Shown here: positions 4,090-62,072 of the stretch, piece after piece
Position numbering within the stretch: the stretch's first letter is position 1
How the letters are laid out: the number at the start of each line of letters is the position of its first letter
Origin: an uncultured Gammaproteobacteria bacterium
GTDB lineage: Bacteria; Patescibacteriota; Patescibacteriia; CAZSQN01
Reading direction: 5' to 3'
Assembly (NCBI GenBank): GCA_964609095.1
Contig: CAZSQN010000002.1
Span: forward strand, 12,633 to 76,632
Length of the DNA: 64,000 bases
Position numbers and translations under genes: made by a program
The notes under the pieces: model-generated
What the model saw: only the letters and a program-made list of their open reading frames with translations
Database searches by the model: none
What the model was told of the DNA's origin: nothing

Positions 4090-4152
4090 GGGTGCGGGGT
4101 CGGGGTACAGGGATAAAAAACCCTAAACCCCAAACCCTAAACCCCAAACCCT
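4089..4152. repeat. telomere-like intergenic element: G-rich block (GGGTGCGGGGTCGGGGTACAGGG) then (CCCTAAACCCCAAA)2
   Basis: heptamer CCCTAAA/TTTAGGG tandem units between glyA stop and folD start; the same repeat family recurs at 12961-13030, 47716-47803 and 60833-60907. Confidence 0.6.
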
Positions 4153-4153
4153 T

Positions 4154-6194: not shown

Positions 6195-6300
6195 TCATAA
6201 TGCAAATATCGCGAATGAATGCGAATACCACGAATATGCAAATACAGTATTCGCATATTCGCGTGATATTGGCATTAGATTCGCATTATTCGCATTATAT
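6195..6300. promoter_or_regulatory. ATTCGCAT/ATGCGAAT repeat block with imperfect palindrome centred near 6247, immediately upstream of dnaB
   Basis: the 27-bp element TATTCGCATATTCGCGTGATATTGGCAT at 6248-6275 is also present in reverse complement at 39857-39883 upstream of msrB; tandem ATTCGCATT units run up to the dnaB ATG. Confidence 0.4.
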
Positions 6301-8624: not shown

Positions 8625-8680
8625 ATTTTTAAGCTTATAGTTTACAGCTTACAACTTATAAATTATTTGTCAACCCCGCA

Positions 8681-9166
8681 CTAATCCCTGTCAATCTTTA
8701 TCTCATCTCCTATCTTCCAGCGCCGCAACGCCGCTCCTCCGGAGGCAATTTCTAAAACAAAATCCGCTTCCTCTCTTGGAATCAATACTTGCGGGTCGCT
8801 TCCCGCTATCGGCGGCGCGGCGCCGGGAGCGATATCAACAATCTTATTTCCGTTAATCCAGATAATATCTATGGCAAAATTCATCCCTTTCATCCAAAAC
8901 GGATGGCGACCCGAAGTTGGAAAAACAAAAAGCATGCCTCTTCCCGGCGGCATCTCCGTCCTTCCGGAAAGCCCTTTCTCGCGCGCGCTCTGGCTGCCGG
9001 CGACTTCGGCAACAATCCGGTCTCCGTTAATTTCCACCATCGCTTCTTTCAGGTGATTTTGCTTATAGCGCAAAAAAACAGCCAGCCCAAGCACGACAAA
9101 CGCCAATCCTAAATAAAATTTCATTTTCATATCAAAGTTATGTGCGGGACTTAATTCTTTTTTCAA
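8681..9166 (-). CDS. DUF192 (COG1430) domain membrane-anchored protein
   Basis: N-terminal TM, then GMLFVFP...HPFWMKGMNFAIDIIWIN...FVLEIASG, typical of DUF192; the true start may be the internal Met at about 9124-9130 because 9138-9166 overlaps the upstream gene. Confidence 0.6.
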   Translation of the reverse strand: MKKELSPAHNFDMKMKFYLGLAFVVLGLAVFLRYKQNHLKEAMVEINGDRIVAEVAGSQSAREKGLSGRTEMPPGRGMLFVFPTSGRHPFWMKGMNFAIDIIWINGNKIVDIAPGAAPPIAGSDPQVLIPREEADFVLEIASGGAALRRWKIGDEIKIDRD

Positions 9167-10205
9167 TAATTGACAAGGCGGCTAAAAAAATAACGGCTAA
9201 TAAAATAATGACAATCATCTTCCATCCGGTTCCCAAAAACCAGCTTGCGCCGCCAAAACCGGCCGCGAATAAATAATAAAACATTACCGCTTGGCGCTCC
9301 GACAAGCCGGCGTCAATCAGGCGAAAATGCAAATGTTCTCTTCCGCTTTCGGTTATTTTTTTTCCGCTTCTCCATCTTTTTATAATAACGGTCGCCACAT
9401 CAAGCACGGGCACGCCCATAACCAAAAGCGTGGTGGCGACTTTGGTGCCGGCGGCAATGGCCAGAGAGCCGATTAAAAACCCGGCGATAGTGCTTCCCCC
9501 CTCGCCCAAAAAAATGCGCGCCGGATGAAAATTCCAAAACAAAAATCCGGTAAAAACCGCGGCTAAAATCCCCGCGAGCATCGCCGTCTGCGGCTGGTTA
9601 AGCTCCGGCCGCAGAGCTATTGCCGCTATAAAAATAGCGGCAACGGCGGCTATGCCGGCAGAAAGCCCGTCCAAGCCGTCAAGAAGTTTTGTCGTGTAAA
9701 TCATTCCCAAAAGCCACAAAAATGAAAGGACATCGGCTGGCAACAAAAAATTCCAAATTCCAAATCCTAAATTCCAAATTCCAAGGTTTATGACTCCGCC
9801 AAACGGATTCTTAATTTCCGTAAAATGTATTCCACCGGCCACCGCAAGGCCGGCTGCCAAAATCGGAAAAATAATTTGTATTTTTGGCCGCAGATTAAAC
9901 TTGTCGTCTAAAATTCCGCCGGCAATTAAAATCGCGCCTCCGGCGGCAAGAGCCAAAAATTGTTTTAAATGAATATAACCGCTTGGGATAAATCCTTTGT
10001 AGAAAAGATAGGCCGCGATTCCGAAAAAAGATAAATAAATCGCCAAGCCGCCCAAGAGCGGTATTGCCCTTTCGTGTTTTTTCCTGCCGCCAAAATCAGG
10101 CGCGTCAACAAAACGCGCCCGAAGCGCCGCCTGCCTTATAAGCCCCGTCGCCCACAAGGAAAGTAAAACGGAAATTAAAAGTAAAAAAATTATATTTGAA
10201 CTCAT
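9138..10205 (-). CDS. glycosyltransferase family 4, MraY/WecA-type polyprenol-phosphate sugar-1-phosphate transferase
   Basis: start at the internal ATG giving MSSNIIF; VDAPDFGGRKKHERAIPLLGG, ILDD and LDGLDGLSAG motifs; contains an in-frame (ATTCCAA)5 heptamer repeat at 9746-9785 encoding IWNLGFGIWNF. Confidence 0.7.
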   Translation of the reverse strand: MSSNIIFLLLISVLLSLWATGLIRQAALRARFVDAPDFGGRKKHERAIPLLGGLAIYLSFFGIAAYLFYKGFIPSGYIHLKQFLALAAGGAILIAGGILDDKFNLRPKIQIIFPILAAGLAVAGGIHFTEIKNPFGGVINLGIWNLGFGIWNFLLPADVLSFLWLLGMIYTTKLLDGLDGLSAGIAAVAAIFIAAIALRPELNQPQTAMLAGILAAVFTGFLFWNFHPARIFLGEGGSTIAGFLIGSLAIAAGTKVATTLLVMGVPVLDVATVIIKRWRSGKKITESGREHLHFRLIDAGLSERQAVMFYYLFAAGFGGASWFLGTGWKMIVIILLAVIFLAALSIIEKRIKSRT

Positions 10206-12892: not shown

Positions 12893-12960
12893 TAGTTTTT
12901 TCTCCTTTCAAAGAACGCCGCTACCGTACCAAAAACGGACGCGAGTGTCAAGGTTGGTTA

Positions 12961-13030
12961 AGCGTTTAGCGGTTAGCGTATAGCGTTTAGTTTTTACCCT
13001 AAACCCTAAATGCTAAACCCTATACCCTGC
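12961..13030. repeat. telomere-like intergenic element: (AGCGTTTAGCG)-type block then TTTTTACCCTAAACCCTAAATGCTAAACCCTATACCCTGC
   Basis: CCCTAAA heptamer units; same family as 4089-4152, 47716-47803, 60833-60907. Confidence 0.5.
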
Positions 13031-13033
13031 AAT

Positions 13034-18097: not shown

Positions 18098-19435
18098 TTA
18101 AGGGATAAGCTTTCTTCTATGCGTTCGACGGTAGAAGGCAATCGCAAATCTGTGCGCTTCGTCGCGCACAGCCACTAAAATATCTTTAAATTGATTGGCA
18201 ACTCTGGCCATTTCCGGATTATCTTTAGGCAAAATAAGCTCATCCTTTTTCCTGTCTACGCCTTTGGCAATGCCAACAATAGGAATGCCCAGATGATATG
18301 CTTCCAATACTTTCTTAGCCGCGTTAACTTGCGGAACTCCCCCGTCAATTAAAATTATTTCCGGCAATTCCCAGCCGGCACCGCGATGGGCAAAACGCCG
18401 CGTTAGCACCTCGCGAAGCATGGCCGTATCATTAGCGCTTTTTACGGTTTTAATTCTGAATTTGCGGTATTGGGATTTATCCGGCTCCCCGCCCGAAAAT
18501 ACTACCATGCTTCCGACTGCAGAAGTTCCGGAAATATTGGAAATATCATAACCCTCAATGCGGCCGTAGATATTAATGATATTCGCTTCTCCGCCTGCGG
18601 CGGACCAACCGTAGGTTGGCGCATCTCTCGTCAGCGCGGAAATATCCCGTATATTCTCCAGGGCGTAAAGGCGATTTCTTATTTTTGCCGCGTCCTCAAA
18701 TCTTTCTTCTTTAACGGCTTTTGCCATTTCTTTTTTAAACCCGCGAATCACTTGTCCTTTTTTGCCTTCAAAAAATAAAATCAGCCCGCGGATATTTTTT
18801 TTATATTCTTTTGGGGAAATCGCGCCGACGCAGACCCCTGGGCATTTTTTAAGGTGATAATCAAAACATGGTTTAGAATTTAGAATTTGGAATTTGGAAT
18901 TTGGAATTTTTGGCGGTTCGCAATCGCTCCATGGGAAACTCTTGCGCAAGATATTCAAGGCGGCGCGGAGCGCGTTGGGGCTCAAAAACGGCCCGAAAAC
19001 ACGCTTGAATTTGGAATTTGGAATTTGGAATTTGTTTCGGATTTCGGATTTCGTGCTTCGGATTTGATGTAACTCGTGTCCTCTCATCAACAATAATTTC
19101 GGATATTTATCTTTTGTGATAACTAAGTAAATAAAGCTCCTGTCATCTTTTTGCAGCACATTATATTTGGGCCACAATTCTTTGATTTTTTCCGCTTCCA
19201 AAATTAAGGCCTCCACCACGGTTTTAACGCGGATATAATCAATTGACTTTATTTCTTTTATAAGCTCGTAAACTTTACCGTTTTGCGGACGAGAAAAGTA
19301 GCTGCCGACGCGCGTTCGGAGCATTGATGCCTTGCCAACGTAAATAACTTTGCCCGAACTGTCTTTCATCAGATAAACGCCCGGGCTTGCCGGCAAAATT
19401 GAATTTTTTATTTTGATGCTTTTGGGAATTGACAT
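18098..19435 (-). CDS. uvrC: excinuclease ABC subunit C, short form lacking the C-terminal (HhH)2 domain
   Basis: GIY-YIG GVYLMKDSSGKVIYVGKA; endonuclease-domain block LIDGGVPQVN...VRDEAHRFAIAF; protein ends about 20 aa after this; contains in-frame (GAATTTG)n and (TTCGGAT)n heptamer repeats encoding IPNSKFQILNSK. Confidence 0.85.
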   Translation of the reverse strand: MSIPKSIKIKNSILPASPGVYLMKDSSGKVIYVGKASMLRTRVGSYFSRPQNGKVYELIKEIKSIDYIRVKTVVEALILEAEKIKELWPKYNVLQKDDRSFIYLVITKDKYPKLLLMRGHELHQIRSTKSEIRNKFQIPNSKFKRVFGPFLSPNALRAALNILRKSFPWSDCEPPKIPNSKFQILNSKPCFDYHLKKCPGVCVGAISPKEYKKNIRGLILFFEGKKGQVIRGFKKEMAKAVKEERFEDAAKIRNRLYALENIRDISALTRDAPTYGWSAAGGEANIINIYGRIEGYDISNISGTSAVGSMVVFSGGEPDKSQYRKFRIKTVKSANDTAMLREVLTRRFAHRGAGWELPEIILIDGGVPQVNAAKKVLEAYHLGIPIVGIAKGVDRKKDELILPKDNPEMARVANQFKDILVAVRDEAHRFAIAFYRRTHRRKLIP

Positions 19436-20390: not shown

Positions 20391-23039
20391 TTATTTCAAA
20401 ACTTTTTTTAAATATCCTCCCGTATAAGAGTTCGCGTTCCGCGCCACTTCTTCCGGAGTTCCAACGGCCACCACTTCTCCGCCGCGAAGCCCGCCCTCCG
20501 GCCCAAGGTCAATAATGTAATCGCTGCATTTTATAACATCCAGATTGTGTTCAATCACCAGCACGGTGTTTCCGGCTTTAACCAATCTTTCCAAAACTTC
20601 AATTAATTTTTTCACATCGTCGTAATGCAATCCGACGGTCGGCTCGTCCAAAAGATACAACGTTCTGCCCGTGCTTCTCCTCGCGAGCTCGGCGCCAAGC
20701 TTAATCCTTTGCGCCTCTCCGCCGGAGAGAGTGGTCGCGCTCTGCCCCAGCTCCAGATAATCCAGTCCCACCTCGCGCAAAATCTTCAGCCGCTGATAAA
20801 TAAAAGGGATATCGCGGAAAAATTCCGCCGCTTCTTCAACGGTCATTTTCAGCGCGTCATAAATTGTTTTGCCTTTATACGCAATTTCCAATGTTTCGTT
20901 GGCAAATCGTTTCCCTTTGCAAATATCGCATTTCACGTAAACCGTCGGCAAAAAATGCATTTCTATGGCAATAGTCCCGTTTCCTTCGCAGTGCTCGCAG
21001 CGCCCGCCGGCCACATTGAAAGAAAATCTCCCCACCTTCCATCCGCGCATACGCGCCTCAGGAGTGGCGGCAAACAATTCCCGGATATAAGTCCAGGCGC
21101 CGGTATAGGTTGCCGGATTGCTCCGCGGGGTGCGGCCGATGGGCGATTGGTCAATGACTATCACTTTATCAAGAAAGTCCAGCCCGGAAATTGATTTATG
21201 CTTGCCCGCGCGATAACTGGTTCCGTTTATTTTATTGGAGGCGGCGTTAAAAAGCACATCGTTCATCAAGCTGGATTTGCCCGAACCGGAGACACCGGTA
21301 ATAGAGATAAGCCGCCGCAAAGGAATCTCCACGTCAATTTTCTTTAAATTGTTTTCCTCCGCGCCTGTTATCTTAATGCGCTCGCGGGAATGCTTGCGGC
21401 GGCTCTCCGGAACCGGAATTTTTTTCTTGCCCAAAAGATATTGAAGCGTGATCGAGTTAGCCACGTCCTTTTTGGAATCCAACAATTTGGGCATATCGCC
21501 TATCGCCACGATTGATCCGCCGTGCGCGCCGGCGCCGGGACCGATATCCACCAGATAATCCGCCGCCGAAATAGTATCTTCATCATGCTCCACGACGATG
21601 ATTGTGTTCCCTAACCCTCTTAAATGCTCCAATGTTTCAATGAGCCGGGCATTATCTCGCTGGTGCAGACCGATGGTGGGTTCGTCCAGCACGTAGAGAG
21701 CGCCGGTAAGCCGCGAACCAACTTGCGAGGCCAAACGAATTCTCTGCGCTTCGCCGCCGGAGAGCGTGCCGGCGGCGCGATCCAAAGTAAGATAATCCAA
21801 TCCCACATCCAACATGAATTTAAGACGATTTTTTATTTCTCGAATTGCCGGTTCGGCGATTTCAAATTCCGTAGCGGCGAGCTTTTGCTCCAATCCGGAA
21901 ATAAAACCGTGCGCTTCATCAATTGTAAGCGAAACAAGGTCAACGATATTTTTCTCCATAATTTTGACCGACAGCGATTCATCGCGCAAACGAAGTCCGC
22001 GGCACTTGGGGCACGGTTCATCGATAAAAAATGATTCTTTGCCCAAGCCGTGGCAGAGTTCACAAGCGCCATAAGGGCTGTTAAAGGAGAAAAGGCGCGG
22101 CTCAATTTCCGGAAAAGCAAATCCGTCATCGGGACAAGAAAATTTCGCTGACATAATCTGTTCCTCGCCATTTTCATAAACAACTGTTACCGCGCCATTG
22201 CCATGCTTTAAGCCGTTTTCTATTGCTTCAACCAAATGAGTTCTAAACGGCTTATTCCCCTCTATCGGCCAGCCAATCGGAACTTTATCAACCTCAAGCT
22301 CAATGGTATGCGCCTTATAGCGCGAGAGCGTGATGCGCTCGGATAAATTTTTTAATTTGCCGTCAACGCGCACCTGGCTGTAGCCGGAATTATAAAAATC
22401 ATAAAGCATCTGATAATACTCCCCTTTTCTGCCGCGCACGACAGGGGCGAGAACAACAATCGAGTTGAGAGTTGAAAGTTGAGAGTTGAGAGATTTTTTA
22501 GATTTTGTCCGCCGGCTGGCGGATTGAATTTGTTTCGGATTTCGGACCTGCCCCGTACCGAACTTGTTCTGGTGCGGGGTTTCGGATTTCGGATTTTCAT
22601 GAAGAGAAGTTATTCTCTTCACGATCGTCTCCGCCATCTCATCTACTGTCATTTTTCTAATCGGCTTGCCGCAGCGGACGCAATGAGGCCGCCCGACGCG
22701 GGCGAAAAGCACGCGCAAATAATCGTAAATCTCCGTGATTGTGGCCACGGTTGAACGCGGATTGGACGAATGCGCCTTTTGGTCTATGGAAATCGCCGGC
22801 GATAATCCTTCTATCTCGTCAACATCCGGCTTATCCATTCCGCCCAAAAATTGGCGGGCATAGGCGGAGAGCGACTCCACATATCTTCTCTGCCCTTCGG
22901 CAAAAATGGTGTCAAACGCCAAGCTGGACTTGCCGCTTCCGGATAGCCCCGTGAAAACTATAAGTTTATTTCTTGGCAGCTCAAGCGATATGTTCTTTAA
23001 ATTGTGTTCGCGGGCTCCTTTGATGATTATTTTGTCCAT
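20391..23039 (-). CDS. uvrA: excinuclease ABC subunit A
   Basis: start at [17 protein letters not shown] (the upstream 19 aa of the ORF translate a heptamer repeat); two ABC ATPase modules, [14 protein letters not shown] and [12 protein letters not shown], with zinc fingers; in-frame (GAGTTGA)n/(TTCGGAT)n repeats at 22462-22600. Confidence 0.95.
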
Positions 23040-23184
23040 AAAAATTTTAAACTCAAAATCCGAAGCCCGAAATCCGAAACAAATCCCAATGACCAAAATT
23101 CAAAGGTTCAAAACGTTTTGAAAATTTGAGAATTATGATTTTAAGCATTGTTTCGAGTTTCGAATTTAGATATTCGGATTTATA

Positions 23185-26035: not shown

Positions 26036-26127
26036 CCTATATAACGCACTATAGTGCGTTATATAAGCAGGTCGGTTTTTTAGTTATATTTTTAAGAAAT
26101 AAAAACCCCGAGTTTATTCGGGGTTGC
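26036..26127. repeat. duplicated intergenic module: perfect 28-bp palindrome TATATAACGCACTATAGTGCGTTATATA (26038-26065) plus terminator hairpin CCCCGAG-ttta-TTCGGGG
   Basis: about 92 bp nearly identical to 27048-27145; the palindrome sits about 65 bp upstream of the 25397..25945 start and the hairpin just 3' of 26143..26886. Confidence 0.6.
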
Positions 26128-26886: not shown

Positions 26887-27047
26887 AACTTCCTCCTTTG
26901 GTTGTTGAGTATTGGAAAAGAGCATCAAGACCGTATCATAAATTATGTATTTTTGTCAATACTATTCGCTCATACTATTCGCTCATTCGCGCGAATTAGA
27001 GCAAGTGCGGACTTTTATTCGTAGCACAATTAACCAAAAAGTTCATT

Positions 27048-27145
27048 GCTTATATAACGCACTATAGTGCGTTATATAAGCAGGTCGGTTTTTTAGTTAC
27101 TTTATATTTTTAAGAAATAAAAACCCCGATTTTATTCGGGGTCTT
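27048..27145. repeat. second copy of the palindrome (27051-27078) plus terminator module
   Basis: near-identical to 26036-26127; placed between 27148..27666 (3' end) and the promoter region of 26143..26886; an ATTCGCGCGAAT palindrome lies just before it at 26985-26996. Confidence 0.6.
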
Positions 27146-28167: not shown

Positions 28168-28317
28168 CTAACTACCTCCTTTTGTGAAAGAACGCGCTTA
28201 TAGTATACCTAAAAACCAAAAAAGTCAACTGTATGTATTAGAAAAGATGTTCTAACGGGATTGACTTTGATTAATTTCCAAGTTAAAATTTTATTGCATT
28301 CCTTGAAAGGAGAAAAA

Positions 28318-30120: not shown

Positions 30121-31917
30121 TTAGGCAAGAAGAGCTTTGAGCTCTTCGCTTTCAATCGTTTCTTTTTCACAAAGAACTTCTGCCAAGGCATGCAGTTTGG
30201 AAATGCGTTCTTTAAGCAGTTCATTGACGCGCCCTCTTGAGGCGCTGATTATCTTTTCAACTTGCTCATCAATTACCTGCGAAGTCGCTTCGCTGTAATT
30301 TTTTCCGGCGCCTAAATCCTGGCCAAAAAAAGTCATCTCGCTCTCGTTGCCAAAAACGCGCTCTCCCAAATCGCTCATTCCGTACTTCATCACCATGTCT
30401 CTGGCGATTTTTGTCGCTTTTTCAAGATCGTTGGAAGCGCCGGTAAAGATGGATTTGATAACCATCTCTTCCGCCGCCCGGCCGCCAAAACAAACATCAA
30501 TTTCCGCGCGCAAACGCTCTTCGGACTTCAAATGCAGATCGTTTTCCGGAAACATCATGGTAACGCCGAGCGCCAGTCCGCGCGGCACAATGGTCACATG
30601 ACGCACAGGGTCGGCCTCAGCCGTGTAATGCGCGACAATCGCGTGCCCGGCTTCATGATAAGCGACAACGCGCTTCTCTTCCGGAGAAAATTTCACGCTA
30701 AGACGCGCCGGACCCATCAACACTCGGTCGCGCGCGGCGGAAAAATCACTTTCATCAGCGGCGTCTTTTTGCGCTCTAGCCGCGCCCAAAGCCGCTTCGT
30801 TCACCGTATTCTCAATATCCGCTCCGCTCATTCCAAAAGGCAGCCCCTTGGCCACGCGAGAGAGATCAACGGACGGCGCCAGCGCGATCTTTTTGGCATG
30901 AACGCGCAAAATAGCTTCGCGCGCCCTTGAATCAGGTATGGTGACAACCACATGCCTGTCAAATCTGCCGGGACGAAGCAAGGCAGTATCAAGCACATCC
31001 GGCCTGTTGGTCGCGGCCAAAATAACAATTCCCGGCCATTTAAGGAAACCGTCCATTTCTTTAAGCAGCTGGTTTAAGGTCTGCTCGCGCTCATCATTGC
31101 CCTGGCCAAGCCCGGCTCCGCGAGCTCTGCCGACCGCGTCTATTTCGTCAATAAAGACAATGCAAGGAGAGGCCTTGCGCGCGTGTTCAAAAAGCTCGCG
31201 CACTCTGGCCGCGCCGACTCCAACAAACATTTCCACGAATTCCGACCCGGATATCTGAAAAAATGAAACACCCGCTTCCCCGGCTGTAGCGCGGGCAAGA
31301 AGCGTTTTCCCGGTTCCCGGAGAGCCGATAAGAAGAACGCCCTTGGGCGCCCGCGCGCCAAGTTTTCCGTAGCGCTCCGGCGACTTCAGATAATTTACCG
31401 TTTCCAGCAAATCCGCCTTGGCTTCATCAGCTCCGGCCACATCGGCAAAAGTGGTTTTATTATCGCCAGGCCTTACCTGCCGGCTGCCGAGCTTGGCAAA
31501 ACTTGTCGCGGTTCCCTTGATGCCTTCGGCCATTCTCTTCACTCCCCAAAACAGCAAAAGAATGAACACGAGAGGAATAATGAGCGGGGCAACAATGGCA
31601 ACCCATCCGGCGCTTGGCTCTTGAACAACGGTTTTGACCCGTTTTTGCCGAAGCAATTTCAGATATTCAATTTCGCCCGGCGGCAAAACCGTTTCACGGA
31701 TTGTCTGATTTTTGGTCAACAATTTTATGGCATTGCCTTCAATTGTGACCTCAACCGCGTTTCCGGCCTCTACTTCATCCAAAAATTCGTCCCAGGAAAT
31801 CGTCCGGTTTTTACCGGACTTATTAACCAGCTGGGCAAGCAGCATTAACGCCGTGGCCAGAATAAACAAAATCAGGACTGTTTTGCCTTTTATCATGGCT
31901 CCCTTTCTCTTTTTCAA
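30121..31917 (-). CDS. ftsH: ATP-dependent zinc metalloprotease FtsH
   Basis: TM anchor; AAA Walker [14 protein letters not shown]; second region of homology; HEAGHAI zinc site; promoter with the AAGTTATGTGCGTGGTTGACA motif, 17-bp spacer and TAAGGT -10. Confidence 0.95.
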
Positions 31918-32061
31918 AGAACCCGCGTTTACCTTACGAATTTTTGCTCATTGTGTCAACCACGCACATAACTTTTACACTAAAAAATTATGTGCGGTGT
32001 CAAATAAAAAACCCTTGCTCTTTTTAGGAACAAGGGATTTGCGGGAAAAAACTTTGGAGAT

Positions 32062-33267: not shown

Positions 33268-33458
33268 TGCGCATCCTTTCTCTTTATCAAAGAACGATTA
33301 ACTAAAATTAAACCAAAAATCCTCATTTGTCAACTATTGTGCTAATATAAGAATCATGCCCCGCACATAACTTGGATATTTACCAAACCTAATGCGGGGT
33401 ATCAAAAGATGACACATGACATAAATTGTGTGACGAATTAACAAATTATGTGCGGGGT

Positions 33459-34715
33459 ATGAGCAAAGAAAATAAAACAATCTATGATGTGGCCGTAATA
33501 GGCGGCGGCCCTGCTGGCATGATGGCGGCGGGGCGAGCAGCCGAGCTTGGAGCCAGGGTCATTCTGATTGAAAAAAACAAAGAACTGGGGAAAAAGCTTC
33601 TTATAACCGGCGGCGGCAGATGCAACCTGACCAACGCCGAAATGGATACCCGCAAATTTTTGGGAAAGCTCAAAGAAAGCGCCAAATTTCTTTTTTCCGC
33701 TTTTGCTGAATTCGGCGTGAAAGAAACTCTGGATTTTTTCCATAACCGCGGCCTAGAAACAAAAGTTGAAGCGGAAAAGCGCGTATTCCCCAAGAGCGAC
33801 AGCGCCCAATCCGTCTGGAACGTTCTCCGTGAGTACATGATGGCTGGCGGCGTCACCGTCGCTCTTGATTCCCCCGCCACCGGATTTGCCAAAAGGGAAG
33901 ATAAAATTACCTCAATCGGGCTTAAAAACAAAAAAGAAATATTTGCCAAATCTTTTATTCTGGCTACCGGCGGAAAATCTTACCCCGAAACCGGTTCCAC
34001 CGGAGACGGTTTTATTTGGCTTAAGGAGCTGGGACACAAAGTGACGGAGTCCGGCGCCGCGCTCGTGCCGGTGGCCATAGGCGATATCTGGGTCCGGCAG
34101 CTCCAGGGGGTCAGCTTGCCGAGAGTTAAAATAACCATCTTGCAAAACAATATAAAGCAGGAATCTAACAAAGGAAAAATCCTTTTTACCCACTTCGGAC
34201 TCTCCGGCCCGGCAATACTCAATATAAGCTCGCAAATCGGCGAACTTTTGGGATACGGCGATGTGGTTATTTCTCTGGATATTTTGCCGGAGCTGGACCA
34301 CGGCGCCTTAAATGAAAAATTACAGGAGATATTTAAAGAAAACAGCAATAAAAAATTTAAAAACAGTTTGGCAGGGCTTCTGCCCGCGGCTATAGCCGGC
34401 GCGGTTGTGGTCAAATCAGGCATCAATCAGGACAAATTCTGCCACAGTATCACCCGCGTTGAGCGGCTCAAGCTTATCAAATTCCTAAAAGATTTAAGGA
34501 TGAAAGCGGCCGGGCTGCTGGGCGCAAAAAAGGCCATTGTCACTTCCGGCGGAGTGGAGCTTGCCGAAGTGGACTTTAAAACCATGCGCTCGCGCCTTTA
34601 CCAAAATCTCTACCTTGTCGGCGATATTTTGAACATTGACCGCCCTTCCGGCGGCTACAGCCTCCAGCTCTGCTGGACTACCGGATACGTTGCCGGAAGA
34701 AACGCGGCGGAATAA
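33459..34715 (+). CDS. HI0933/YhiN-family FAD-dependent flavoprotein
   Basis: DVAVIGGGPAGMMAAGRAAELGARVILIEKN Rossmann dinucleotide motif and ITGGGRCNLTN block; start at ATG 33459 inside the longer ORF. Confidence 0.8.
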   Translation: MSKENKTIYDVAVIGGGPAGMMAAGRAAELGARVILIEKNKELGKKLLITGGGRCNLTNAEMDTRKFLGKLKESAKFLFSAFAEFGVKETLDFFHNRGLETKVEAEKRVFPKSDSAQSVWNVLREYMMAGGVTVALDSPATGFAKREDKITSIGLKNKKEIFAKSFILATGGKSYPETGSTGDGFIWLKELGHKVTESGAALVPVAIGDIWVRQLQGVSLPRVKITILQNNIKQESNKGKILFTHFGLSGPAILNISSQIGELLGYGDVVISLDILPELDHGALNEKLQEIFKENSNKKFKNSLAGLLPAAIAGAVVVKSGINQDKFCHSITRVERLKLIKFLKDLRMKAAGLLGAKKAIVTSGGVELAEVDFKTMRSRLYQNLYLVGDILNIDRPSGGYSLQLCWTTGYVAGRNAAE

Positions 34716-35072: not shown

Positions 35073-35333
35073 TTAGAGCAGGTTAATGATCTGCTTGGCT
35101 TCCGGCTTGAGATTCGGAGCCAAACTATAAAACATCTGCAAACTCCTCTGCTCTTTCTCCAGAATATCAGCACCGGCCAAAATCCTCAAATGCTTTGAAG
35201 TTGCTTTAAAAGAAAGTCTAATCGCTTCCGCTGCTTCAGATACCGGCGCTTCTTTATGAGATTTAATATACTTAAGTATCGCCAGCCTGCGGTGATTGGC
35301 CAAAGCCTTTAGAGTTTTTTCAATCTTTTTCAT
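35073..35333 (-). CDS. ArsR/SmtB-family winged-helix transcriptional regulator
   Basis: 86 aa; LANHRRLAILKYI...VSEAAEAIRLSFKATSKHLRIL HTH; flanked on both sides by ATTCGCGCGAAT palindromes (35062-35073 and 35391-35402). Confidence 0.65.
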   Translation of the reverse strand: MKKIEKTLKALANHRRLAILKYIKSHKEAPVSEAAEAIRLSFKATSKHLRILAGADILEKEQRSLQMFYSLAPNLKPEAKQIINLL

Positions 35334-39835: not shown

Positions 39836-39885
39836 AACGCGAATAATTTTATTTATGCCAATATCACGCGAATATGCGAATATCG

Positions 39886-40272
39886 CTATTCGGAAACTGA
39901 CGGATTGACAATCCTCTTAATATGTAAAGATTTCTGATTAAAGTTCGCCAAGAGCACGAGTTTGCGTTGCGCGGCTGTCTGATACCTCCGTGCTTGAAAA
40001 TAATCTTCACGACTAACAAATCTTTTGGCCTTAATCTCCAATATAATCTTATCGTCAATCAGAAAATCAACTCTGTTTCTTCCTGGTACTTCGCCCTCAA
40101 ATGACTCGGCTAATCTTAATTCTCGCTTATAGGGTATTTCGAGCTTCTTTAGCCACCCCTCTATCCGGTCGCAGTATTGCTTCTCATTGCAGAATCGCCC
40201 CAATTCATTGTGGGTAGCGAATAGAACGCCGTTAATGCGATAAGACAGTTCAGGATAAATCACTTTATTCAT
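39886..40272 (-). CDS. GxxExxY family protein (PD-(D/E)XK-like fold)
   Basis: [25 protein letters not shown]...[18 protein letters not shown] matches the GxxExxY / DUF4433-unrelated PD-DExK small-protein pattern. Confidence 0.7.
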
Positions 40273-40318
40273 AGTATTCGCATATTAGCGTCATTCGCAT
40301 CCATTCGCAAGATTCGCG

Positions 40319-45544: not shown

Positions 45545-45615
45545 GCGGGTGTAGTATAGTGGTAGTACGCGACCTTCCCAAGGTTGTGGTGTGGGTTCGA
45601 TTCCCATCACCCGCT
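45545..45615 (+). tRNA. tRNA-Gly (anticodon CCC)
   Basis: acceptor GCGGGTG/CACCCGC, anticodon loop uuCCCaa, T-arm GTGGG-TTCGATT-CCCAT; no encoded CCA. Confidence 0.75.
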
Positions 45616-45737
45616 TAGATCTTACGGGAATCGAAGGACGCGAGATAAACCGAGCTGGCGCAGGTTTTGGCGCGCAGCGTCCAGGCTCGAGTCGGAGCGA
45701 GAGGATTCCCATCACCCGCTTAGATTTTACGGGAATC
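45599..45737 (+). repeat. tRNA-Gly 3'-end direct duplication (34-bp DR at 45599-45632 and 45704-45737) bracketing a conserved 71-bp insert
   Basis: DR = GATTCCCATCACCCGCTTAGAT(C/T)TTACGGGAATC, comprising the tRNA 3' 16 nt plus 17 nt of downstream hairpin; the insert ends ...CCAGGCTCGAGTCGGAGCGAGAGG and is homologous to the insert at the tRNA-Lys locus. Confidence 0.6.
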
Positions 45738-45755
45738 CGCTCCAAAACTTTGTAA

Positions 45756-47714: not shown

Positions 47715-47715
47715 T

Positions 47716-47803
47716 AGTTTAGGGTTTAGGGTTTAGGGTTTAGGGTTTAGTTTTCTAAATCACTATACCCTCTACCCTGTCCCCTATACCCTCAATAAAT
47801 TGC
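47716..47803. repeat. telomere-like palindromic element: (GGGTTTA)5 - spacer - (CCCT[AC]TA)4
   Basis: G-rich half GTTTAGGGTTTAGGGTTTAGGGTTTAGGGTTTAG and C-rich half CTATACCCTCTACCCTGTCCCCTATACCCTC can pair through GGG:CCC tracts; located between two co-directional minus-strand genes. Confidence 0.6.
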
Positions 47804-54812: not shown

Positions 54813-55002
54813 GAAAACACTCCGCTTATGGCGGAGTGTAATCATATGACCCGGCTGGGATTCCTCTCGCTCCGACTCGAGCCTGGGCGCTATGCACTAA
54901 ACGCTCGCCAGCTCGCATTTACTCGCACTCTTCGAATCCCAATTCTATTTTGAAAACACTCCGCTTATGGCGGAGTGTAATCATATGACCCGGCTGGGAT
55001 TC
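54813..55002 (-). repeat. tRNA-Lys 3'-end direct duplication (51-bp DR at 54813-54863 and 54952-55002) bracketing an 88-bp insert homologous to the tRNA-Gly-locus insert
   Basis: DR = GAAAACACTCCGCTTATGGCGGAGTGTAATCATATGACCCGGCTGGGATTC, comprising the tRNA 3' 17 nt plus a downstream terminator hairpin; insert (minus-strand sense) ...GCGAGCTGGCGAGCGTTTAGTGCATAGCGCCCAGGCTCGAGTCGGAGCGAGAG. Confidence 0.6.
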
Positions 55003-55758: not shown

Positions 55759-56661
55759 TTAAAGCATCCTCTTATGCGCGTAACGGACCATATCCAGCAG
55801 TTCATCCGGAGTTGGCACGGTCTTTTTGTCGCCGTCCTTGGGATAGATATAAAGAAAAATCCCGTTCAAGTGGCAGAAAAGACGGCTCGAGCGGCCGCAA
55901 TCGGGATAATCACTCCTAACCATATCCGCGATCTGCCGCAAATTTACTTTGCGCGCCTCCGGCCCCAAAAGCGTGACGCCCACGGCGTTATCGCCGTAAC
56001 GCGCCACAATCATCCCGACTTGCTCGCCGAGATTCTGAAGCGCGAAATTGCGAAGTTCTTTGCGCCCGCGGTCGGTTTCTCCAAAAAGAACCCCGCCCAT
56101 AGGCGTGGAAATAATTTTAATCCGTCCGCCCACTCCGATTTCGGCCAGCAGCGCCTTGGTGCGGCGCGTTCCGGCGTAATACGCCTTTAGGGTATAAAGC
56201 CCCCAGCGCATCCGTTCCTCGTTTGAGCAGACGGAACGGAGGCCGATGAGTCCGGCGGAAAGCGCGCGCATCAGCGAAGCAAACTGCCCTTCAATCCTAT
56301 ACGCGCCGTCCAAGCCCTTGCCGTTATCGGCGCAGCGCACAAATTCAACCATATCTCTGATCAAGTCATCGTTTTGAAACGCCTTGGGGAAACTTCGCCA
56401 AACAAGCGAAGCGGCGCACTCATTGCGCACCAGCGGGTCGTCCTGATGGTGGTCAAATTCGCGGATGCCGTCAAACCTGCCGCCGGTATCAATGTGAACC
56501 GGCTCCCGTTCTCCAAGCATCTCGCTTCCTGCACGTTCTCCGGAGCGCACAAATATCCAGTCAATATCCGATATCCAGATTCCATGCGCCTCAAGATAAA
56601 GCAGAGAAGCGGCAACCGCGTCAGCGTCCGGTTCGGAGGTGACAATCGCCCTTTTGTGCAT
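55759..56661 (-). CDS. DHH-like phosphoesterase domain protein (tentative)
   Basis: 300 aa; EPDADAV, HIDTGG and FDHHQD blocks reminiscent of DHH motifs I-III; promoter with GTGCGGGGTTGACA. Confidence 0.4.
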   Translation of the reverse strand: MHKRAIVTSEPDADAVAASLLYLEAHGIWISDIDWIFVRSGERAGSEMLGEREPVHIDTGGRFDGIREFDHHQDDPLVRNECAASLVWRSFPKAFQNDDLIRDMVEFVRCADNGKGLDGAYRIEGQFASLMRALSAGLIGLRSVCSNEERMRWGLYTLKAYYAGTRRTKALLAEIGVGGRIKIISTPMGGVLFGETDRGRKELRNFALQNLGEQVGMIVARYGDNAVGVTLLGPEARKVNLRQIADMVRSDYPDCGRSSRLFCHLNGIFLYIYPKDGDKKTVPTPDELLDMVRYAHKRML

Positions 56662-56925
56662 TTCCCCTTCTCCTTGTCTTACGGTGAAAAAATTCCAAAA
56701 GAACTCCCTAAATAAACTACATTAAAACGAATCTCTTGTCAACCCCGCACACATAACCCTCATAAATATCATTAGACAATTTTGTAGGAATTTCGGTTAT
56801 ATATAATTACCCAAGATAAGTTAAATTATTTATATAGGTTTATGTGCGGGGTCAACCCCCGGTCATGTACACAGTTAAGGCCGTTGCTCATGCTCTCCCT
56901 TTGACTAATCAAAAACTTATTCATT

Positions 56926-58062
56926 CTAAATTCCATTAACCCTTGCAGATTTTAATTTATCAGCAATTTGTCGCCATATTGTTTCTCTTAATCTTCGTCC
57001 TAAACAATAATTGTCTCCGTACTTTAAAAGTCCAAAGTATGACTGCGCTGACTGGCGGAAACTTTCGTCGGATATTTCGCCGTTCTGATACGATTCAATG
57101 TGCCGCCGCATAACGCAAAATATCCGTTTTTTTGTTTTCAACCGCAGAGTCCGATAATGTGGCCGAAACGCTTGTCCCACAAAATCAATGCCGTAAGAAA
57201 GTTTCCTGATTGAAACTTTCTTTGGGTGGAGTTCTAAACCGCGCTCTTCCAACAGATATCGCCGTATCTGAAAAAGCGTGTCTTCCAACACTGCGGGACT
57301 TCTATGTAAAATAATAAAATCATCGCAAAAACGAACATACCAACGCATACCAAGTTTTTCTTTCACAAAATGGTCTAATCCGTTAAGATAAATATTTGCG
57401 AAAAGCTGGCTGGTCGCATTGCCGAGCGGAAGTCCGCATCCGGGCTTTTCATTGGCGCAATAACTCTGTAAGATTTCTTTAATCAGCCATATAATATTTT
57501 CATCTGATATTTTTCGTCTTATAATATCCAACAGAATATCCTGCCGCACCGAATCAAAAAACTTGCGGATATCGCATTTGAGCGCGTAAACGACAAAATG
57601 ATAATTCGCGGTTGCTTGCCGGAAAAACTTTTCAAGACGGAGCACAGCCGCGTGCGTGCCTTTATCTTTTCTGGACGAATATGAGTCAAAAATAAACTGC
57701 GGTTCAAATATCGGCTCTATAATCTGAACAACAGCCTGATGCGCCACTCTATCTCGCACTATTGCTTTGCTGATATACCTGCGCTTGGGATCATTAACAA
57801 AAAAATGTTCATAAGAACCATGATAATAGGTTTTATTTAAGAGGATTTCGTGAAGCGAAAAGATGTTATTTTCCAAATCGCGCGCAAATGCCAAAACATC
57901 CGTATTGTTCATTTTGCCTTGTTTAAACTTTTCCCAAGCATTATAAAGATTTTCTAACGAGATAACTTGTTCAAAAATGTTATGACCTTGAATTACCCCC
58001 CCCCGAAGGAATTTGACAGATGGCTCACCGGCTTTGCCGGTGAAGAGTTTGGATTGGTCCAT
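56926..58062 (-). CDS. diversity-generating retroelement (DGR) reverse transcriptase
   Basis: RT motifs KCDIRKFFDSV, GLPLGNATSQLFANIYL (the DGR-type [ILV]GxxxSQ rather than group II QGxxxSP), VRFCDDFIIL and GLELHPKKV; start placed at MDQSKLF because the further 5' ORF extension is antisense to avd and low-complexity; adjacent TR/VR pair. Confidence 0.85.
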   Translation of the reverse strand: MDQSKLFTGKAGEPSVKFLRGGVIQGHNIFEQVISLENLYNAWEKFKQGKMNNTDVLAFARDLENNIFSLHEILLNKTYYHGSYEHFFVNDPKRRYISKAIVRDRVAHQAVVQIIEPIFEPQFIFDSYSSRKDKGTHAAVLRLEKFFRQATANYHFVVYALKCDIRKFFDSVRQDILLDIIRRKISDENIIWLIKEILQSYCANEKPGCGLPLGNATSQLFANIYLNGLDHFVKEKLGMRWYVRFCDDFIILHRSPAVLEDTLFQIRRYLLEERGLELHPKKVSIRKLSYGIDFVGQAFRPHYRTLRLKTKKRIFCVMRRHIESYQNGEISDESFRQSAQSYFGLLKYGDNYCLGRRLRETIWRQIADKLKSARVNGI

Positions 58063-58398
58063 AAACTTTACGAATTTTATAAGCTCATACATCAGGATAC
58101 CGCAAAATTTCCCAAAACAGAAAGACATACATTGGCTGAAACCATAAAATCCAAAACGCTTAAACTTATTGACGGCGTCTGGGAAGCCAATTCGCTCCCT
58201 TTGCCCGAACGCCTCGTTTTGCTGGAACGGCTGCAAAGAACGCTTGATCTTGTTAAATTGCTCATTCGCCTCATCCGCGACTTGGGCATCTATCAACTTA
58301 AAGGATATATCTATCGCGAAGCTCGACTCCAAGAAATCGGCAAAATGTTAGGTGTGTGGAAAAAAAATACGCGCAAACGGCTCGGTTTAGACCCATAA
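57982..58398 (+). CDS. avd: Avd-like four-helix-bundle accessory variability determinant (23S rRNA IVS-protein family)
   Basis: KLYEFYKLIHQDTAKFPKTERHTLAETIKSKTLKLIDGVWEA and LDLVKLLIRLIRDLGIY parallel the IVS/Avd consensus (FPKxER...L..QI...IAEG ... IRLGYL); on the strand opposite to RT, overlapping its 5' end by about 80 bp; a C9 homopolymer lies in the overlap. Confidence 0.6.
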   Translation: MTLNYPPPKEFDRWLTGFAGEEFGLVHKLYEFYKLIHQDTAKFPKTERHTLAETIKSKTLKLIDGVWEANSLPLPERLVLLERLQRTLDLVKLLIRLIRDLGIYQLKGYIYREARLQEIGKMLGVWKKNTRKRLGLDP

Positions 58399-58399
58399 C

Positions 58400-58430
58400 A
58401 AAAAAGCTCCGTATTATCGGAGCTTTTTTG
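58400..58430 (-). ncRNA. stem-loop in the TR-RT spacer (AAAAAAGCTCCG-ataata-CGGAGCTTTTTT)
   Basis: perfect 6-bp GC stem flanked by A/T runs, immediately 3' of the TR on the RT-sense strand, where DGR RNAs carry structured spacer elements. Confidence 0.4.
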
Positions 58431-58443
58431 CTTCTTGAATTGC

Positions 58444-58560
58444 TTCCGCGCACCGCCCGCCTTCGTTGTCATATGGGTTCGCGAGATCATCGTCATTTCA
58501 CCTGTTCACGTTGACCCTGCCATTGTACTCGTTCGCATTCAAGGCGTTAGGCCCGAAACG
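58444..58560 (-). other. DGR template repeat (TR)
   Basis: 117 bp homologous to 58915-59031; every one of about 20 differences is an adenine on the minus strand of this copy versus a non-adenine in the other; in the target reading frame it encodes AAC/AAT-rich RFGPNALNANEYNGRVNVNR*NDDDLANPYDNEGGRCAE with an internal TGA; 3' end shares a GC-rich block GGCGGGCGGTGCGCGGAAG with the VR. Confidence 0.8.
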
Positions 58561-58830
58561 CAATGTGTCGTTTTCATCCGTAATCACCGGAGGAAACCGT
58601 GTGGTCGCCTCCCGAACTCCAAAACTCTCGGAGGGGTCTTTGACGGCATCCCGTCCTAAAAACGGCACGAAGCGGTTCAAGATAGTTTCTCTAAATTGTC
58701 TGCCTCTTTGTCCCGACACAATCGGGACAAACTCTCACAAACAAATCAAGGGTTTTGGCAACCTTCATTCCAAAATAATCGGAACGGAGATATACGAACC
58801 TCAACCAAAATTATTTTAGCAAAAATAAAA

Positions 58831-58858
58831 AGTCCCTTCAACCGAAGCTGAAGGGACA
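58831..58858 (-). other. GC-rich hairpin immediately downstream of the VR/target gene stop (GTCCCTTCA-...-TGAAGGGAC)
   Basis: 9-bp perfect stem about 45 bp 3' of the target stop codon, the position where DGRs carry a homing-associated stem-loop. Confidence 0.45.
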
Positions 58859-58899
58859 AGTTTCAAGCGGACAAAAGGAACAAGCGATCAGGACTCAAG

Positions 58900-59628
58900 T
58901 TACATCTTGACCACTTCCGCGCACCGCCCGCCAGCGCAGTCATATGGGTACGCGAGAGCATCGTCATCCCACCTGCCCACGCAGACCCTGCCAATGGACT
59001 CGTTCGCACGCAAGGCGCCAGGCCCGAAACGGGTGCGGAGCCAAGACCAAGTTCTATTATCAAGCATGACGCTGGTTGCGGCTTTGTGAACCCACCAGAC
59101 AAGCGCATACTCTTCCAGCGAAAGCAAGTTCAATCTTTGCTCTTTGGTGAGTTTATTCCAGCTCGTGCCCAAGCGAGGACACTCTTGGGCAACTTCGGCC
59201 CAGAACCAGTAACCGGTTTGGGCTGGTTCCCAGACGATTTTCTTCCTGTCGCTCTCGTCCACGACAGTCCAGTGTTCGTCCTGGCCAACGGCCTTCATCA
59301 AGGCCTCGTAGGAGACCTCTGAGGTTGGAGGGCGATAGAACAGGTCTTGATTCATGGCCTGGCGCCTCTTGTACTCTTCATCTGGAACAGGAGGAACTGG
59401 TATTTGAAGGGAAAAACCAAGCTTGTAGTACCAGTCCATGAACCAGTTGCGGCGATTCGTGGCAAAGTCGCCGGAGGCAAAGGTTTTTGCGCCTTCCTGC
59501 TCCCTGCTCTTTGAGAGGTTCAAAACCGCTTCCTGGATCTGCTCGGCCGTTAGACCAAGCGAGATACCGAATTGCACCAGCTGAACAGGGGTGAGAGGAA
59601 CTGCCGCGGGGGTACGATATGCGGACAT
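58900..59628 (-). CDS. DGR target (variable) protein, VR at C-terminus (58915-59031)
   Basis: 242 aa; C-terminal ...RFGPGALRANESIGRVCVGRWDDDALAYPYDCAGGRCAEVVKM aligns codon-for-codon with the TR, with substitutions only at TR AAC/AAT/GAA/TGA adenines (N to G, N to R, Y to S, N to I, N to C, N to G, * to W, D to A, N to Y, N to C, E to A). Confidence 0.75.
   Translation of the reverse strand: MSAYRTPAAVPLTPVQLVQFGISLGLTAEQIQEAVLNLSKSREQEGAKTFASGDFATNRRNWFMDWYYKLGFSLQIPVPPVPDEEYKRRQAMNQDLFYRPPTSEVSYEALMKAVGQDEHWTVVDESDRKKIVWEPAQTGYWFWAEVAQECPRLGTSWNKLTKEQRLNLLSLEEYALVWWVHKAATSVMLDNRTWSWLRTRFGPGALRANESIGRVCVGRWDDDALAYPYDCAGGRCAEVVKM
58915..59031 (-). repeat. DGR variable repeat (VR)
   Basis: see the TR entry; adenine-specific mismatch pattern; the 19-bp GC-rich IMH-like block is at the 3' end (58915-58933). 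Confidence 0.8.
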
Positions 59629-60831: not shown

Positions 60832-60832
60832 A

Positions 60833-60907
60833 AAGGGTTTAGGGTATAGGGTTTAGGGTATAGGGTTATAAAAAACTATATCCCATACCCTATCCTCTAT
60901 ACCCTTT
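60833..60907. repeat. telomere-like palindromic element: (GGGTTTA/GGGTATA)5 - AAAAAACTATAT - (CCCATA/CCCTATA)3
   Basis: AAGGGTTTAGGGTATAGGGTTTAGGGTATAGGGTTAT ... CCCATACCCTATCCTCTATACCCTT between the murG start and ftsW stop; same family as 47716-47803. Confidence 0.6.
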
Positions 60908-62021: not shown

Positions 62022-62029
62022 AAAAAATA

Positions 62030-62072
62030 AGACCTATAAGGCCTATAGGTCTCATAGGTCTTATTTTTTATT
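62030..62072. terminator. bidirectional palindromic terminator AATAAGACCTATA-AGGCCTATAGGTCTC-ATAGGTCTTATTTTTT
   Basis: about 12-bp stem flanked by A-run and T-run between the lon stop and ftsW start. Confidence 0.5.

Follow-up and report, generated by a model that had tools for sequence, protein, structure and literature searches.

Short, probably mobile, hairpin-forming inverted repeats in the intergenic DNA of an uncultured Patescibacteriota bacterium

The intergenic DNA of an uncultured bacterium of the Patescibacteriota, as represented by a 64-kb stretch of contig CAZSQN010000002.1 (assembly GCA_964609095.1, positions 12,633 to 76,632; hereafter the window), contains a recurrent motif that an earlier note on this sequence had tentatively placed within a strong, lineage-specific promoter. 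The motif is probably the terminal arm of a family of short, non-coding, hairpin-forming inverted repeats, mobile palindromes akin to miniature inverted-repeat transposable elements (MITEs) or to the repetitive extragenic doublets known as REPINs. This account draws on the combination of conserved ends with a free core, the occurrence of doublets together with decaying single copies, the direct repeats that flank young copies, the absence of the motif from relatives, and its patchy, wide distribution elsewhere. The arm has the sequence ACCCCGCACATAA / TTATGTGCGGGGT, with the consensus A-C/T-CCCGCACATAA-A/C-TT when read from outside to inside, and a single arm (ACCCCGCACATAA) is without an internal dyad. 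A search of the window for AGTTATGTGCGKGG, allowing up to two mismatches, returned six matches where 0.55 were expected, a number reached in 0 of 100 shuffles. Direct reading of the sequence together with a fuzzy scan gives nine copies, all of them intergenic or on a gene boundary, in a window of which intergenic DNA makes up about 5 kb by a crude map of open reading frames (ORFs). The at least eight intergenic copies claimed earlier are thus real and far above chance, and the list was right, its coordinates being a few bases off.

The copies are organized as doublets. In a sample of about 80 kb, comprising the window plus 8 kb past each of its ends in the same population, there are 13 arms in total, and doublets follow one fixed arrangement, CCCCGCACATAA ... 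TTATGTGCGGGG, with GGGG ends outward and TTAT ends inward. Five doublets of 40-124 bp are present, three in the window and two beyond its right end, with none in the 8 kb beyond its left end. The arms, 13-19 nt long, are inverted in every doublet; the cores are variable and mostly AT-rich, running from 16 to about 100 nt; no ORF lies inside any of the five, and a strong hairpin is predicted for each (z-scores of -5.2 to -9.0). Doublet E1 (40 bp, 31960..31999; CCACGCACATAAC-16 nt-TTATGTGCGGTG), with arms at 31960-31971 on the minus strand and 31988-31999 on the plus strand, stands between the terminator of an upstream small gene (32036-32012) and the -35 hexamer of ftsH, and its hairpin is predicted at -19.7 kcal/mol (z = -5.2). 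Doublet E2 (99 bp, 33359..33457; hairpin z = -6.1) is an inverted repeat between divergent M50 peptidase and flavoprotein genes, with arms at 33359-33370 (minus) and 33446-33457 (plus) and a degenerate partial arm, TAATGCGGGGT, inside it at 33390-33400 (plus). Doublet E3 (109 bp, 56743..56851; z = -5.7), downstream of the reverse-transcriptase gene of a diversity-generating retroelement and upstream of gene 55759-56661, has one arm with a 2-nt insertion (CACACATAA, 56743-56756, minus) and another at 56840-56851 (plus). Doublets E5 (121 bp) and E6 (124 bp) lie past the right window end, in locus L093. The inverted pairs that had been described at 33359/33446 and 56743/56840 are therefore real, and the two copies upstream of ftsH add a third pair, of 40 bp; the label "DHH-like" given to gene 55759-56661 is not supported, the gene having no Pfam or NCBIfam match.

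Reverse-complemented, E1 equals the first ~28 nt of the left end of E6 joined to the right arm, and on this sequence comparison E1 is probably an internally deleted copy of the E6 type. The three single arms are the most degenerate, and the doublet arms are closer to consensus. The single arms comprise the partial arm within E2 (33390), a degenerate arm TTA-GTGCGGGG in the rplU promoter (8674-8688, minus) and the arm AAGTTATGTGCGGGA at 9135-9149 (plus). The doublet is the functional unit, and a single arm is what is left of a decayed copy. Across E1 and E2 there is no difference among three independent assemblies of the window population, which show one orientation and no polymorphism. The window belongs to a Candidatus Uhrbacteria genome, and its FtsH is identical to that of GCA_016181485.1.

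With the element boundary placed at CCCC...GGGG, perfect 4-bp direct repeats flank three of the five doublets, each such match having a chance of 1/256 per element. TCAA stands on both sides of E1 (31956..31959 and 32000..32003) and of E3 (56739..56742 and 56852..56855), and TATG on both sides of E6, while the flanks of E2, CATG (33355-33358) and TATG (33458-33461), agree at three of four bases. Candidate target-site duplications, which had been proposed earlier as a check, are accordingly found at most doublets of this genome. Doublets would, on the mobile-repeat account, be moved or copied at the DNA level by a putative enzyme recognizing the arms or their hairpin, and in young copies insertion would leave a 4-bp direct repeat, most often TCAA. 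A DDE enzyme cutting with a 4-bp stagger would account for the copies in the window, and a single-strand HUH enzyme that cleaves at or targets the tetranucleotide TCAA would account for how often TCAA recurs and for the many copies that have no duplication.

Relatives of this genome were reached through FtsH homologues (loci L084, L087 and L088, at 83%, 74% and 62% identity) and through the Glycos_transf_4 gene (L090 and L092), a further FtsH search of genome contigs returning proteobacterial and Chloroflexi loci only, at 47-54% identity and of no use for the comparison. In about 60 kb of these relatives' loci the canonical motif does not occur, even at three mismatches, and it is absent from the Glycos_transf_4/DUF192/rplU junctions of both L092 and L090. 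The relatives are distant, and presence/absence differences are seen at the ftsH promoter and the rplU-region junctions without a clean empty-site alignment. The left flank of E2 is similar to the DNA that precedes the flavoprotein start in L087 (45 of 2000 shuffles, p ~0.02), and part of the E2 core aligns there too. The one related structure, in L090, with CCCCGCACTTTTCC, tRNA-Glu and GGAAAAGTGCGGGG in that order, has only its outer eight bases in common with the arms. The possibility that the arms at 8674 and 9135 constitute one doublet carrying DUF192 was rejected, DUF192 being ancestral at that position in relatives. At this same junction, between the Glycos_transf_4 stop and the DUF192 start, where the window has its single arm, L090 (7087-7212; the 83% relative) carries a 14-nt inverted repeat, ATCCCGTTAGAGAT ... 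ATCTCTAACGGGAT, around 98 AT-rich nt, and L092 has one copy only of this 14-mer.

The arms recur in genomes much further away. A search for paired arms (CCCGCACATAA, a gap of 75-105 nt, and TTATGTGCGGG; 22 fixed bases) matched 64 metagenome contigs, mainly from groundwater and sediment, the chance rate of a 22-base pattern with 31 gap lengths being, by our own arithmetic, about 2 per 10^12 bases. Given that these contigs span 29 to 61% G+C and that their proteins are only 35-57% identical to the window orthologues (FtsH, for example, 50%), the distribution is both patchy and wide. Positions outside the search pattern are conserved too, the inner continuation being A/C-T-T, and 85% of arms have A as the base adjoining CCCC on its outer side. 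Nearly all of the metagenome copies are intergenic, mostly between co-directional genes, with ribosomal-protein genes as the commonest neighbours; in the S3-L16 spacer the element is present in five lineages and the site is empty in three. Perfect 4-bp repeats flank four of 52 distinct copies, against 0.2 expected, and include TCAA twice and TTCA. One subfamily has a 5-bp AAAAT repeat 6 nt further out, its outer flanks forming the two halves of another hairpin in whose loop the element sits, and one contig holds three minimal 25-nt palindromes with the arms back to back. Variant arms share only the outer CCCGCAC/GTGCGGG, and one variant copy, in L114, is flanked on both sides by TCAA. With flank repeats on most doublets and paired arms in 64 unrelated contigs, the fallback reading of the earlier note, that inverted pairs are the termini of miniature inverted-repeat elements, is the one supported. 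Small ORFs running through the metagenome arms were considered and rejected, as compensatory changes in neighbouring hairpins are non-synonymous and the S3 and L16 genes lie on the other strand.

Several observations weigh against the mobile-repeat interpretation. No transposase, Y1/RAYT or integrase domain was detected among the approximately 65 window ORFs that were domain-searched (nearly all of those of at least 85 amino acids); no enzyme gene recurs beside the metagenome copies at the 64 loci; and neither the window nor its extensions nor those loci yielded an autonomous partner bearing these termini. Apart from E1 and E6, the doublet cores share no similarity, in which they differ from a typical MITE family. 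Doublet E5 (flanks TTAA/TTTG) is without a flanking repeat, as are most of the metagenome copies, and the lengths and offsets of flanking repeats vary among subfamilies. With A at this position in so large a share of arms, what looks like a 4-bp repeat may instead consist of a 2-bp repeat and one base of the arm. Finally, the presence of arms at tRNAs, in a 23S helix, in RNase P RNA and in the S3-L16 spacer suggests a role for the host at the RNA level, or vertical retention under selection.

This last point bears on the strongest alternative, in which the paired arms are an RNA-level signal: a transcribed stem of 13-20 bp, acting in processing or stability through RNase III or a sequence-specific factor, would release or protect tRNAs, intercistronic mRNA, or insertions in rRNA or RNase P RNA, and may have spread by mobility. 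We consider it rather unlikely. Part of the evidence for it comes from structural RNAs. In L120 (1502-1601) the P16/17 arm of an RNase P RNA is built from the paired arms, and this RNA still scores above the Rfam threshold; in L105 (9574-9672) the paired arms take the place of a 23S rRNA helix at its native position, with a 76-nt insertion, according to the alignment with the bacterial large-subunit model (Rfam model positions about 1750-1777). Two further copies precede the 5' end of 23S rRNA by about 20 nt (L154 2556-2656; L115 129-229). Intact tRNA genes from three organisms are bracketed by arms, namely tRNA-Ala (CGC; L101 2116-2233), tRNA-Cys (GCA; L134 2301-2406) and tRNA-Glu (CUC; L090 5345-5451), each at the tip of a 14-20 bp stem with CCCCGCAC.../...GTGCGGGG arms, an arrangement that could represent a processing stem or mobile tRNA cassettes. 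The strong enrichment of ribosomal-protein operons among copies between co-directional genes, with the S3-L16 spacer filled in several lineages, points the same way. In addition, G.U pairing of the window flanks UUGA and UAUG would lengthen the stem in all four of the four cases, as read on the strand that is sense for the gene downstream; by itself this is weak evidence.

Other observations speak against a signal of this kind. A purely structural signal has no need of a fixed sequence; close relatives do without arms at the same sites; and several copies in the window are placed ahead of promoters or between genes that diverge, where the two arms need not belong to one transcript. Bracketing is confined to the two ascertained cases out of the 19 tRNAs present at the metagenome loci. 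Mismatches beside the arms on the sense strand of operon-internal copies are unbiased (G.U 36 versus A.C 33), and consequently symmetry is not visibly maintained at the RNA level. The copies in structural RNAs, at tRNAs and in the S3-L16 spacer suggest that the hairpin is at least tolerated in RNA and perhaps used as a processing or stability stem; such a role would be an addition to mobility rather than a replacement for it.

A more speculative proposal, which we put forward as tentative, is that the 13-bp stem CCCCGCACAUAA/UUAUGUGCGGGG (outer CCCCGCAC/GUGCGGGG) may be a portable hairpin cassette served by a putative dedicated enzyme common to distant lineages of the candidate phyla radiation. 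That enzyme could be a hairpin-specific DNA transposase targeting the loops of other hairpins, which would explain the insertions at the tips of 23S and RNase P helices and inside palindromes, or a sequence-specific RNA endonuclease, in which case the cassette would signal processing, with arms on either side of tRNAs and as punctuation within ribosomal-protein operons. Either mechanism, if true, would be one not described for bacteria with this signature.

Less probable again is the possibility that the same element is moved in the manner of REPINs by a single-strand HUH/Y1 enzyme of the RAYT or IS200/IS605 type, TCAA then being a recognized cleavage or target tetranucleotide and not the product of staggered cuts. 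The right end of IS608 finishes in TCAA, and here TCAA is found on both sides of five independent copies; the absence of duplication from most copies and the insertion of elements in the loops of other hairpins would likewise suit a single-strand mechanism. Hairpin-forming doublets with decaying singlets also match the definition of REPINs, in which two inverted units would be expected to fold into a hairpin as single-stranded DNA or as mRNA, lie in extragenic space and are better conserved as doublets than as singlets (PMC3116915). The single arm, however, lacks a palindromic core of its own, unlike REP, and the TATG and TTCA flanks are at odds with one fixed tetranucleotide. No Y1 transposase gene was seen in any sequence examined, including the ~80 kb of this genome, which contains no RAYT gene.

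The reading originally favoured for the motif, that of a protein-binding site associated with promoters, either UP-like or a class II activator site at the -35 of strong housekeeping promoters, is very improbable, even though the contacts on which it was based exist. TGACA directly adjoins three copies, those at rplU, ftsH and gene 55759-56661, so that the TTGACA fusions described earlier are borne out, as is the layout given for the ftsH promoter, with its 17-nt spacer and TAAGGT. The three arms finish exactly at a perfect TTGACA, 16-17 nt before TAAGCT, TAAGGT and TAGTTT, and the genes served include rplU and ftsH. At ftsH the left TCAA of E1 is, on the minus strand, the TTGA of the -35 TTGACA (31954-31959), with the -10 TAAGGT at 31931-31936; at E3 the left TCAA is likewise the minus-strand TTGA of a TTGACA hexamer (56737-56742), which a 17-nt spacer separates from TAGTTT. 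The rplU arm has a copy of TGTCAA on each side (8668-8673 and 8689-8694), in the order TGTCAA-CCCCGCACTAATCCC-TGTCAA (8668..8694, minus), the rplU-proximal copy being the -35 TTGACA. Beside these perfect -35 hexamers the -10 hexamers are weak, with three of six consensus bases, and a consensus promoter scan calls none of these promoters; the ftsH promoter is nonetheless supported by its conservation in L084, which keeps TTGACA, a near-identical 17-nt spacer and TAAGGT.

It is this same conservation that tells against the motif as a promoter component, because in L084 the DNA upstream of the ftsH -35 is unrelated to the motif. Moreover, only three of the 13 arms in this genome adjoin a -35; the other ten adjoin start codons, overlap stop codons, or face a terminator or the 3' end of a gene. 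The motif is GC-rich, unlike an UP element, it always has an inverted partner at variable distance, and in other genomes it occurs in rRNA and RNase P RNA genes and around tRNAs. The TTGA of TTGACA reads TCAA on the opposite strand, so that an element inserting into a -35 would recreate the hexamer beside its arm, and the apparent fusion of motif and -35 arises because the flank repeat TCAA/TTGA belongs to a pre-existing -35. Insertion into TTGA|CA with duplication of TTGA would restore a hexamer that adjoins the arm and is spaced from the -10 as before, keeping the host promoter intact while replacing the DNA upstream of it. Other copies would have landed on start codons (TATG) or on the last codons of genes, the ATAA of the arm giving a new stop. 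In keeping with this, the rplU arm provides the TAG stop of the DUF192 gene; the arm at 9135-9149 contributes, through its minus-strand ATAA, the TAA (9138-9140) that ends the Glycos_transf_4 gene, with the start codon of DUF192 7 nt further on; an E5 arm supplies, again through ATAA, the stop codon of the upstream gene; and the right flank TATG of E2 and E6 holds the start codon of the downstream gene, at E2 the ATG of the flavoprotein. On this account the promoter association is a by-product of the landing sites, and any effect on expression, whether through altered DNA upstream of the promoter or through a stable hairpin in the transcript, may be secondary.

Equally improbable is that the inverted pairs are recombination sites, such as invertons, Xer/dif-like sites or integron attC-like sites. 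They do present conserved inverted repeats around variable AT-rich intergenic segments, the inner ends of their arms (CATAA/TTATG) are similar to those of dif arms, and ACATAAC/GTTATGT is one base from the attC core RYYYAAC/GTTRRRY; but the spacers measure 1, 16 and 75-105 nt against a crossover region of 6-8 nt, conservation does not extend to the C of AAC (A 53%, C 27%), only one orientation is seen in the three independent assemblies, a 40-bp unit is too short for inversion, and no recombinase gene lies nearby. The remaining candidates were rejected: a group II intron 5' end (GTGCG) is contradicted by both the strand of the motif and its position with respect to the reverse transcriptase, itself part of the diversity-generating retroelement; a DnaA box, CIRCE or another operator does not match in consensus, and the variable arm spacing is unsuited to a dimeric site; and a DNA-uptake sequence, suggested by the resemblance of the motif core to the Haemophilus uptake signal AAGTGCGGT, is contradicted by too low a density, exclusively intergenic copies and a fixed arrangement of arms.

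A full-text search of the available literature found no paper containing the motif, and the mobile palindromes described here resemble several known families without coinciding with any. Like bacterial MITEs, for example the Correia/NEMIS elements of Neisseria, they are short (here 40-125 bp), non-coding and multi-copy, with terminal inverted repeats and apparent short flanking duplications; they are intergenic, often co-transcribed and form long hairpins; and they can stand at or supply promoter hexamers and alter gene ends. In contrast to those elements, however, only ~13-16 nt of the ends are common here, with cores unrelated among copies, no parent insertion sequence is known, the flank duplication is absent from most distant copies, and the arms span genomes far more divergent than one genus. 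REPINs share the inverted, hairpin-forming doublets that are better conserved than singlets, yet the single arm here is not a palindrome, young copies have 4-bp direct repeats, a RAYT gene was not seen in the ~80 kb of this genome, and copy density outside this genome is low. The site in the 23S rRNA of L105 recalls intervening sequences (IVSs), being an AT-rich, stem-closed insertion of ~100 nt that replaces the tip of a variable helix, with a sporadic distribution suggesting horizontal spread; to our knowledge the site is not among the classical IVS helices, and the arms described here, unlike IVSs, are also found in RNase P RNA, at tRNAs, in ribosomal-protein operons and in promoter regions. 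A survey of rRNA genes of the candidate phyla radiation reported many short, unclassified IVS-like insertions and no dispersed element (PMC11270868). The ERIC (or intergenic repeat unit, IRU) sequences of enterobacteria are similar as imperfect palindromes of ~100 nt that are transcribed, intergenic and conserved across genera at variable locations, but ERIC is conserved over its whole length and here only the arms are. Arms of 13-16 nt, occurrence in distant genomes, cores capable of holding a tRNA and insertion in helices of structural RNAs together set the family apart from REPINs, MITEs, ERIC and 23S IVSs.

A search of the window against Rfam returned four tRNAs only, with no rRNA and no match at the elements or close to the reverse transcriptase. 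The window has several other features of note. A complete diversity-generating retroelement spans 56926-59628, with its reverse transcriptase at 56926-57912 (minus), the bAvd gene at 57982-58398 (plus), the template repeat at 58443-58560 and the variable repeat at 58914-59031, at the 3' end of gene 58900-59628 (minus); all 18 of the 18 differences between the two repeats fall at adenines of the template, and the long ORF 56926-58332 is an over-extended reverse-transcriptase gene. Intergenic heptamer arrays of TTTAGGG/CCCTAAA, the plant-type telomere unit, and variants such as TATAGGG occupy 4090-4153, 12990-13033, 47715-47783 and 60832-60896. Tandem 7-bp repeats (AAATTCC, GAAATCC and others) are found within coding regions at 9748-9790, 18883-18905, 19007-19030, 22528-22597 and 23049-23084, notably in uvrA, uvrB, uvrC and the Glycos_transf_4 gene, and the relatives have them in the same genes with different units (L084 15829-15884 and 17165-17180; L088 9528-9557 and 10848-10862). 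A palindrome-containing motif of ~28 nt, ctattctaccATTCGCGCGAATtagagca, at 26985, 35062 and 35391 of the window, is kept in the 83% relative (L084 7029, 7925 and 8254) and clusters round greA and an ArsR/HTH_20-type regulator gene (35073-35333), for which it looks like a candidate operator. A leader motif, GC-rich and then GTTCTTTGA(A/C)AAAG, stands just 5' of the Shine-Dalgarno sequence in five genes, all on the minus strand (31914-31922, 33287-33295, 28185-28193, 12908-12916 and 1521-1529), recurs in the leader of ftsH in both L084 and L087, and on visual inspection resembles boxA.

Two partial tRNA duplications are also present, one of the 3' part of tRNA-Lys and its hairpin, repeated 139 bp away (54813-54863 = 54952-55002), and one of the 3' end of tRNA-Gly with its trailer, of which a second copy immediately precedes tRNA-Thr (about 45600-45630 versus 45711-45740); both are typical integration scars. 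Inverted TATTCGCATATTCGCG-type repeats at 39863-39882 and 40275-40294 surround a small PD-(D/E)XK (PDDEXK_3) gene (39886-40272), and similar repeats occur upstream of dnaB (6198-6277). A 36-nt perfect palindrome, TGCTTATATAACGCACTA/TAGTGCGTTATATAAGCA, is found twice (27047-27082 and about 26066-26101), each time followed by the same terminator-like hairpin, and a separate palindrome of 52 nt lies at 62020-62071.

For the annotation of this genome, the implication is that sites of the motif are not to be read as a regulon or as a special class of promoter, and that several gene ends here are artefacts of insertion, where arms supply stop codons or adjoin start codons. More broadly, genomes of the candidate phyla radiation are small and generally regarded as poor in repeats. 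The possession of common arms by genomes whose proteins are only about 50% identical would imply either horizontal traffic of a tiny element among episymbionts or a shared activity that recognizes the hairpin in RNA or DNA.

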